This document shows, in pieces, positions 11,796-12,160 of a stretch of 15,752 nucleotides of DNA. The notes beneath the pieces are model-generated. The model did no database searches. It was not told where the DNA came from and worked only from the letters and a program-made list of their open reading frames with translations. Origin of the DNA: a virus. The stretch is taken from the IMG/VR virus record IMGVR_UViG_3300032156_000932; one strand, given 5' to 3'. The stretch's first letter is position 1. Each line of letters begins with the position of its first letter. The translations under genes and the position numbers were made by a program.

Positions 11796-12160
11796 TGGAG
11801 ACGATGGGAATCGAACCCATGTCCAGTAGAGTCGAGCGTTCACTTCGTTACGTGTGTGGTCGCGCTGAAGGTCTCAGAGAGTGCCGCACGACTGCACTCC
11901 CAGGGTCCAGGCTGCTTCTCGGTGCGACCTGTCAAACCGTGGGTTGCTCGTCTCGAATTGCGCCAGCCGTGCGAGTTACGAGCACCTCGCACGTCCGACG
12001 TTCCCTAAGCGGCCCTCTGGAGGGAGGGTACCGCCATCTTCGGAAAGGGGATGACATCTGCATCGGCATTTGTCTGTTGAAAGTCGTTTTAAACCGCTGG
12101 CTTACAAGCGGTACACGCAGTGAGCACCGTCACATCCGCTGTCGAAACCATTACGTCCCC
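11796..12160 (-). ncRNA. ssrA: tmRNA (ssrA-like), about 365 nt, with a candidate tag ORF at 12067..12005 (ADADVIPFPKMAVPSLQRAA, ending in TAG)
   Basis: The minus-strand 5' end GGGGACGTAATGGTTTCGACAGCGG matches the tmRNA 5' consensus GGGGxxGxxxxGGxTTCGAC. The 3' end has a GGAC-ATGGGTTCGATTCCCAT T-arm and acceptor CGTCTCC-A pairing with the 5' GGGGACG. Length is near that of E. coli tmRNA (363 nt). An in-frame ...GCC GCT TAG (AA-stop) lies about 93 nt from the 5' end. Confidence 0.8.

Follow-up and report, generated by a model that had tools for sequence, protein, structure and literature searches.

Introduction

Transfer-messenger RNA (tmRNA, SsrA) genes of phages have been catalogued for about 20 years, and our literature search found no paper that tested their benefit to the phage. 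Huge phages carry tmRNA together with SmpB (Al-Shayeb et al. 2020, PMC7162821), the mycobacteriophages Bxz1, Catera and Wildcat carry tmRNAs (PMC1475703), and a catalogue of 18,146 phage genomes gives a frequency of ~2.3% for tmRNA, with 133 unique structures and genome sizes between 33 and 595 kb (PMC9004378, text and Table S1). Here we analysed a 15,752-nucleotide (nt) stretch of viral DNA, IMG/VR record IMGVR_UViG_3300032156_000932 (hereafter the window, meaning the whole stretch), which probably carries a functional phage-encoded tmRNA gene with a conserved, uncatalogued tag peptide. An earlier note on this DNA had reported an element-encoded tmRNA with an atypical tag and had added that tmRNA genes are rare outside the largest phages, which is too strong in view of the frequency among isolate phage genomes and the range of genome sizes given above.

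Like the known phage tmRNAs, the gene is a complete tmRNA in a large lytic-type phage genome, lies next to tRNA genes and is presumed to serve ribosome rescue in infection. Phage tmRNAs being already known, the locus is a well-supported further example and not a new kind of system. It differs from the others in forming a separate sequence family with three known genomes, in providing comparative evidence of selection on the tag, and in having a tRNA-like domain that exists in two forms. To our knowledge, neither such evidence of tag-peptide selection nor such dimorphism has been described for other tmRNA-bearing phages. The bacterial one-piece tmRNA (Rfam RF00023) is matched in the tRNA-like domain with its G3:U70 pair and T-arm, in a first pseudoknot (PK1) before an alanine resume codon, in a short frame ending Ala-Ala-stop, in three putative further pseudoknots (PK2-PK4) and in a length of ~365 nt. 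Unlike the bacterial RNA, the present one is phage-encoded, its tag lies outside the ARAGORN catalogue and has Arg or Glu at the usually hydrophobic antepenultimate position (-3), its body is unrelated to the ~80 other tmRNAs that we collected, among which it found no match, and its CCA end is not encoded.

The basic picture of trans-translation is unchanged by this locus. What it offers is a comparison in which all substitutions in the tag are synonymous, evidence that ribosomes translate the tag of a phage tmRNA and that the amino acids it encodes matter. Natural variants are available as well: the tag ends in RAA or EAA, and the same RNA body carries either of two tRNA-like domains. These variants bear on whether host proteases read phage tags, on the reader of the conserved upstream part of the tag, and on whether homing endonucleases can bring about the exchange of parts of an essential structured RNA.

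Identification of a phage-encoded tmRNA gene

ARAGORN and Rfam both called a tmRNA on the minus strand, and the tRNA-like domain folds. The one-piece gene spans 365 nt at 11796-12160 (tmRNA position p is window coordinate 12161 - p) and has syntenic copies of 90-95% identity in two related viral contigs, compared below as loci L022 and L023. The RF00023 match covered 11795-12160 (minus strand) and the full model (1-374) with 96.8 bits (E = 3.9e-37), the gathering threshold being 47 bits, and the GCC resume codon was aligned to the consensus GCA of the model. The 5' half of the tRNA-like domain (12134-12160, minus strand; ARAGORN positions 1-27) comprises the acceptor strand GGGGACG and the D-loop analogue UAAUGGUUUCGAC, and the 3' half (11796-11831, minus strand) comprises the T-arm AUGGG-UUCGAUU-CCCAU, the acceptor strand CGUCUCC and the discriminator A. 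The 7-bp acceptor stem (G-C, G-C, G-U, G-C, A-U, C-G, G-C) includes the G3:U70 alanine identity pair. Coordinates, completeness and the pairing of GGGGACG with CGTCTCC-A, as given in the earlier note, were all correct.

The genes around the tmRNA are of phage type. All long open reading frames (ORFs) of the window lie closely packed on the minus strand, and to either side of the tmRNA they match phage families: a phage-type topoisomerase-like protein (phrog_6247, E = 2.5e-94), DUF2786/DUF7168, a Tad2-like anti-Thoeris domain, a DnaJ-domain protein, a metallophosphoesterase, a GDSL lipase and, upstream of the tmRNA, a 690-aa protein of phrog_4313. The first relative, IMGVR_UViG_3300036761_001580 (205,564 bp), has a vault-like protein (L001) 98% identical to that of the window and the same tmRNA, tag and tRNA-Pro. 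The second, IMGVR_UViG_3300031952_000001 (= Ga0315294_10000012; 211,982 bp), was reached through the 690-aa protein (79% identity) and has a syntenic tmRNA. About 25 kb of each relative was examined. When viral and metagenome collections were searched with degenerate tag patterns, these two relatives were the only further family members, and a blastn search against isolate phages gave no match. Judged by its gene content and synteny, the tmRNA locus is phage DNA.

We also considered whether the gene could be a host ssrA at a prophage edge or on a mis-binned contig, or a decaying passenger copy without function. The ssrA gene is a common prophage integration site, and ssrA fragments occur in prophages (PMC9004378). 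However, no integrase was found near the tmRNA, phage genes flank it on both sides, and it sits in mid-contig in the 205-212 kb viral contigs; its body matches nothing else collected, and the synonymous tag changes, compensatory stem changes and conserved promoter described below argue against a passenger. An exact match to a host chromosomal ssrA was looked for as well, and none of 185,579 bacterial and archaeal species genomes contained both halves of the tRNA-like domain exactly. This explanation is thus refuted as far as sequence analysis goes and strikes us as very improbable, in agreement with the earlier assignment of the gene to the element and not to its host.

A host could not be called from the tRNA-like domain, both halves being found together in no species genome. 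The bacteria sharing the 5' 20-mer of the domain are mostly low-GC Clostridia and Negativicutes, which are implausible hosts because the phage has 60% GC.

Conservation of the tag peptide

The tag reading frame (GCC...GCU UAG, tmRNA 94-156; 12005-12067, minus strand) was located by ARAGORN and encodes ADADVIPFPKMAVPSLQRAA*, the same peptide as first written in the earlier note. Comparison of this 63-nt frame among the three genomes revealed seven point substitutions, at tmRNA positions 102, 117, 129, 132, 135, 138 and 150. All seven were synonymous and fell on third codon positions (chance expectation (1/3)^7 = 4.6e-4), and the variable sites flanking the frame covered all phases (6/3/6 before it and 4/2/5 after it). 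The sole amino-acid difference was an extra in-frame codon in L023, whose tag, ADADVIPFPKMAVPSLQREAA, ends in QREAA against QRAA in the others. The upstream 18 residues were identical in all three genomes, and the tag ended in Ala-Ala-stop in 3/3, with Arg at position -3 in the window and L022 and Glu in L023. The seven synonymous third-position changes together with the in-frame codon insertion indicate that the frame and the resume codon are right; the Rfam alignment agrees, so that a start codon formerly called uncertain can be accepted. The substitution pattern further indicates that the whole peptide sequence, and not the last residues alone, is under purifying selection.

Recoding of UAG was rejected, since TAG ends 9/21 phage genes (TGA ends the other 12/21) and the codon-phase signal stops at the tag UAG.

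The tag end is atypical by bacterial standards, as had been claimed. ARAGORN reported 'Tag not identified', the 20-residue tag being absent from its catalogue, and 35/36 unique bacterial tags that we collected had a hydrophobic residue (L, V, I, F, Y, M or A) at -3, where the present tag has Arg; the exception ends in GVI and looks mis-called. By its -3 residue the tag is not special among viral contigs, for 8/21 unique viral-contig tags outside this family were polar or charged there (four LKAA, plus QEAA, AQAA, FQFA and ISVA). This suggests that a polar or charged -3 residue recurs among phage tmRNAs and is not peculiar to that of the window, which is only a lead because the comparison set consists of sequences selected by pattern, partly redundant or related, and is not a random sample.

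Among these collected sequences, tmRNAs with tags ending in LKAA (e.g. ADSYYQLKAA) form a group of their own, carried by viral contigs of 6-53 kb (L016, L018, L019 and L020). The L020 tmRNA, on a 26-kb contig, lies between terminase, DUF5131 and DNA methylase genes and is thus phage-encoded, and the QEAA tmRNA of L200 has PHROG-matching neighbours on both sides. A cyanobacterial origin of the tag, raised by a resemblance to ANNIVPFARKAAPVAA (a tag present in L177), was rejected, as the body identity of 0.525 equalled the background of 0.51.

Structure of the RNA body

One explicit structure was scored across the window, L022 and L023. In helix 2 (44-48/306-310 and 39-42/317-320), pair 48:306 changed from U:A to C:G in a compensatory manner. 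PK1 lies before the resume codon (12081-12112, minus strand; pair table of the three genomes), with stem 1 at 49-54/63-68 and stem 2 at 58-62/76-80; its pair 49:68, A:U elsewhere, is C:G in L022, again a compensatory change, and its pair 61:77 is C.A, C:G and U:A in the three genomes, that is, paired in 2/3. The putative PK2 (11945-12000, minus strand) consists of a 14-bp composite hairpin (161-200) of three stacked stems and a 7-bp loop-to-downstream stem, UGCUCGU/ACGAGCA (177-183/210-216), that was without any change; all its pairs are standard in the window, and at 165:196 the G.U of the window is G:C in the relatives, a one-sided improvement. The PK3 region (stem 222-225/238-241) and the putative PK4 (260-267/277-284 and 269-275/296-302) occupy 11859-11939 (minus strand). 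PK4 shows a compensatory change at 265:279 (U:A to C:G) and a one-sided improvement at 273:298 (U.G to C:G). Two stems, both fully paired, can be drawn for PK2 and likewise for PK4; for PK3 the first stem was scored and the second was traced by eye.

Several observations weigh against reading these data as a functional tmRNA with a conserved tag. Rfam posterior probabilities were low over the PK2-PK4 part of the RF00023 alignment, three pairs are lost, each in a single genome (in L022 50:67 and 170:191, in the window 61:77), and the covariation counts are small, with three genomes in the family. In addition, the change between Arg and Glu at -3 among the relatives implies that the C-terminal recognition element is not strictly conserved. 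We therefore take the structural covariation in these three sequences as modest yet consistent evidence. Together, these results demonstrate, at the level of sequence comparison, that purifying selection acts on both RNA structure and tag peptide in this lineage of three ~200 kb phages.

Proposed pathway and fate of tagged proteins

We propose that the gene would be transcribed from its own conserved sigma-70-type promoter with a leader of ~35 nt, which RNase P would trim from the 5' end, and that a CCA-adding enzyme would complete the 3' end. The host alanyl-tRNA synthetase (AlaRS) would charge the RNA with alanine through the G3:U70 pair, and the charged tmRNA, together with SmpB encoded by host or phage, would enter stalled ribosomes. 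Translation would resume on GCC and append A-DADVIPFPKMAVPSLQRAA. The likely benefit to the phage is the recycling of ribosomes when infection or host defence yields broken mRNAs.

Since the tag keeps the terminal Ala-Ala-COO-, tagged products would probably still be degraded by ClpXP-type proteases reading this end, possibly with altered affinity. The 18 residues upstream are strictly conserved, which suggests that their sequence has a further, specific reader, for example an adaptor or another protease. Ala-Ala-COO- is the most important ClpXP determinant, and in E. coli mutation of the antepenultimate Leu raises KM only modestly (PMC7652416). A degron screen strongly selected Ala-Ala preceded by neutral or positively charged residues and tolerated Arg upstream of it (PMC10862746). 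On these grounds, the suggestion of the earlier note that the tag redirects or blunts host proteolysis is not established.

Alternatively, the tag could act as an anti-degron or re-routing tag, in which Arg or Glu at -3 permits escape from host ClpXP/SspB or recruits a different, perhaps phage-encoded, reader. The difference at -3 between the bacterial tags and those of this family and other viral contigs would fit this explanation, as would the location of L020 and L200, both polar or charged at -3, among phage genes, the failure of ARAGORN to recognise the tag, and the perfect conservation of 18 upstream residues that a plain Ala-Ala degron would not need. However, the dominant ClpXP determinant is kept, the effect of the antepenultimate residue is modest, a positive charge upstream of Ala-Ala is compatible with strong degrons, and the tags compared come from pattern-selected, partly related sequences. 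Overall, we regard an anti-degron role as unlikely and retain the view that the tag probably still marks proteins for degradation. A further generalisation, in which phage tmRNAs would be a distinct class that keeps Ala-Ala, often has a non-hydrophobic -3 residue and uses a phage-specific tagging code read unlike that of the host, and in which the tRNA-like domain would be a swappable module tied to homing-endonuclease immunity, is speculative and in our judgement rather improbable.

Two versions of the tRNA-like domain

Between the window and L023, 18/47 positions of the tRNA-like domain differ, against 14/325 in the body (Fisher p = 3.6e-10), so that body identity is 96%. The bodies of L022 and L023 are less alike (33/325 positions differ), yet the tRNA-like domain is common to both. 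The domain of the relatives has the acceptor GGGCCGG/CCGGUCC and a 16-nt T-arm, GGGGUUUCGAUACCCC, and L023 encodes CCA. Between the two versions there are six double-sided pair swaps, three in the acceptor stem (pairs 4, 5 and 6) and three in the T stem, and G3:U70 is kept. The matching of 5' and 3' halves that lie ~320 nt apart indicates selection for a paired, working tRNA-like domain. Both versions are, to judge from sequence matches, established classes elsewhere: the 5' 20-mer of the window occurs in 58 stretches of bacterial species genomes, with a tmRNA at 52 of those loci, and of the 33 viral-contig stretches that contain the T-arm 19-mer of the relatives, GACGGGGTTTCGATACCCC, 31 do not belong to this family and most are 3' ends of one-piece or permuted tmRNAs. 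The lineage would contain two interchangeable versions of the domain, that of the window being the allele without a homing endonuclease gene after the tmRNA.

The T-arm of L022 and L023 had at one point been taken for a unique oddity, which the 33 viral-contig stretches show to be wrong. T-arm GGGGUUUCGAUACCCC, 1 nt below the standard 17, is present in viral contigs L178-L209, whose short-T-arm tmRNAs include permuted (two-piece) ones, with tags such as ANDAFYGEDRLAA, and one-piece ones, with the unusual tag ends QEAA, AQAA, FATA, ISVA and FQFA.

In L022, the tmRNA is directly followed by a 162-aa HNH_3 ORF (8437-8925, plus strand; Pfam E = 1.7e-11, phrog_20891 E = 7e-41), and in L023 the same site holds a different, 123-aa HNH ORF (8464-8835, plus strand; phrog_4234 E = 1.4e-31). 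Both inserts are bounded downstream by the motif GTTGGCAGC. In the window the arrangement is tmRNA-AAAT-GTTGTTGGCAGC, and this position of the shared motif, 4 nt past the tmRNA, indicates that the window carries the empty site. Alignment assigned to the empty site a window-specific, G+C-rich block of 109 nt after the tmRNA (11687-11795, minus strand). The L023 cluster also holds an extra tRNA-Met and a 226-aa helix-turn-helix ORF (9095-9775, plus strand) before tRNA-Pro. In other phages, the genes most closely related to these two endonucleases are found next to tRNA clusters or within them, which does not hold for more distant relatives. From these arrangements, the RNA-gene cluster is evidently a hotspot for mobile genes. 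The 109-nt block stands in place of the relatives' endonuclease gene, ~70 nt and a tRNA-Met or tRNA-like remnant, and has complementary GGGAGGG/CCCUCCC runs.

The exchange of the domain could reflect homing-endonuclease immunity, in which the HNH enzymes would cleave the allele that lacks an endonuclease gene, within the 3' domain or close to it, the alternative domain would be a cleavage-immune allele travelling with the endonuclease gene, and the 5' half would be matched by selection for pairing. A precedent is T4 SegB, a free-standing homing endonuclease encoded within a tRNA cluster (PMC2330249); more generally, the boundaries at which phages have recombined are marked by nuclease genes (PMC10448857). 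As with SegB, the endonuclease genes of L022 and L023 lie between RNA genes, and sharp divergence starts at the neighbouring RNA gene, as co-conversion or target-site immunity would lead one to expect; unlike SegB, they encode HNH and not GIY-YIG enzymes, lie beside a tmRNA and not a tRNA, and are known from sequence alone, and the site in the window is empty. The clean empty-site and filled-site configuration, the presence of two inserts of different families with nearest relatives at tRNA clusters, and the concentration of divergence in the tRNA-like domain all agree with this explanation. However, a single domain allele goes with two endonuclease families. The 5' patch measures just ~13 nt, and the ~320-nt body between the halves was left out of the conversion, a pattern for which one conversion tract does not account; the association, moreover, comes from three genomes. 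We consider endonuclease immunity a tentative possibility that falls short of being probable.

The versions might instead be fitted to different SmpB, EF-Tu, RNase P or CCA-adding enzymes and have been acquired by recombination with another tmRNA gene, independently of the endonucleases. Such host adaptation would account for the occurrence of both domain types elsewhere and for the exchange of only the domain that contacts host factors, with body and tag kept. Against it, exact copies of the two halves of the window's domain were found together in no bacterial genome, and in other respects the three phages resemble one another closely (98% identity in the vault-like protein between the window and L001). 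This explanation seems to us somewhat unlikely. Selection for a paired tRNA-like domain holds under either explanation.

Promoter, transcript and neighbouring RNA genes

Upstream of the tmRNA we identified a sigma-70-like promoter, CCTC-TTGACA-17 nt-TATATA (12201-12233, minus strand; hexamers at 12229-12201), 41-69 nt from the mature 5' end. Its -35 element is perfect and its -10 element matches at 4/6 positions; both hexamers were invariant in the three genomes, and 5 substitutions fell in the spacer. A strict consensus promoter scan found nothing directly upstream of the tmRNA, as TTGACA-17-TATATA fails it. The gene thus has its own promoter with conserved hexamers, as had been stated, but this is not the perfect consensus that the statement implied. 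A second candidate immediately upstream, TTGACA...TATCAT, has an 11-nt spacer and was rejected as implausible for a sigma-70 promoter.

The 11-nt motif CCCTCTTGACA occurs twice (11424-11434 and 12224-12234, minus strand), forming the -35 region of two conserved promoters, that of the tmRNA and that of the vault-like gene; the latter has the -10 element TAGACT, which is also conserved. The motif is probably a promoter signature of the phage, perhaps an early one. Weaker copies are present at 1335-1344 (plus strand) and 4989-4998 (minus strand).

A structured element of ~150 nt that ends in a U-run lies between the tmRNA and tRNA-Pro in all three genomes (11536-11686, minus strand, in the window). 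It has a 13-bp closing stem around several hairpins, with 2 compensatory pairs (minimum free energy, MFE, -70.8 kcal/mol; z = -3.4), and gave no Rfam match at E <= 1. The element is probably on the tmRNA transcript and is a candidate for a novel small RNA or an elaborate terminator. It is followed by tRNA-Pro (UGG) at 11457-11533 (minus strand; ARAGORN, and Rfam tRNA with 57.1 bits), which also follows the tmRNA in L022 and L023; the L023 copy differs in sequence and comes after an inserted ORF. A perfect 12-nt inverted repeat, CTCGGTAGTCTA/TAGACTACCGAG (11442-11453 and 12165-12176), lies 4-5 nt outside the mature ends of this tmRNA/tRNA-Pro module. It is probably not a long-range processing stem, as L022 has a mismatch in one arm and L023 is without the downstream arm.

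Neighbouring protein genes

Downstream of the tmRNA, the window encodes a 900-aa homologue of the eukaryotic major vault protein, MVP (8652-11354, minus strand). It matched the Pfam families MVP_shoulder (E = 1.2e-29), Vault_3 (E = 1.4e-8) and Vault_2 (E = 0.0015), and residues 499-893 matched solved MVP structures (E = 1.6e-17). Relatives with 40-44% identity are encoded by viral contigs, of which several measure 200-500 kb, and by LR756500 (462 kb), LR756501 and LR756503 (735 kb), a point that the locus has in common with huge phages (462-735 kb). Our literature search found no title or abstract describing vault proteins in phages. A distant relative has, close to its vault-like gene, a tRNA whose anticodon is CUA (L003, 5991-6064, plus strand; tRNA-Pyl by ARAGORN), which may be an amber suppressor and hint at stop-codon recoding in that phage; the phage of the window uses TAG as a normal stop. 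A probable anti-defence gene of the window (6949-7419, minus strand) encodes 156 aa that match the Tad2-like (Thoeris anti-defence 2) domain (PF11195, E = 2.1e-19).

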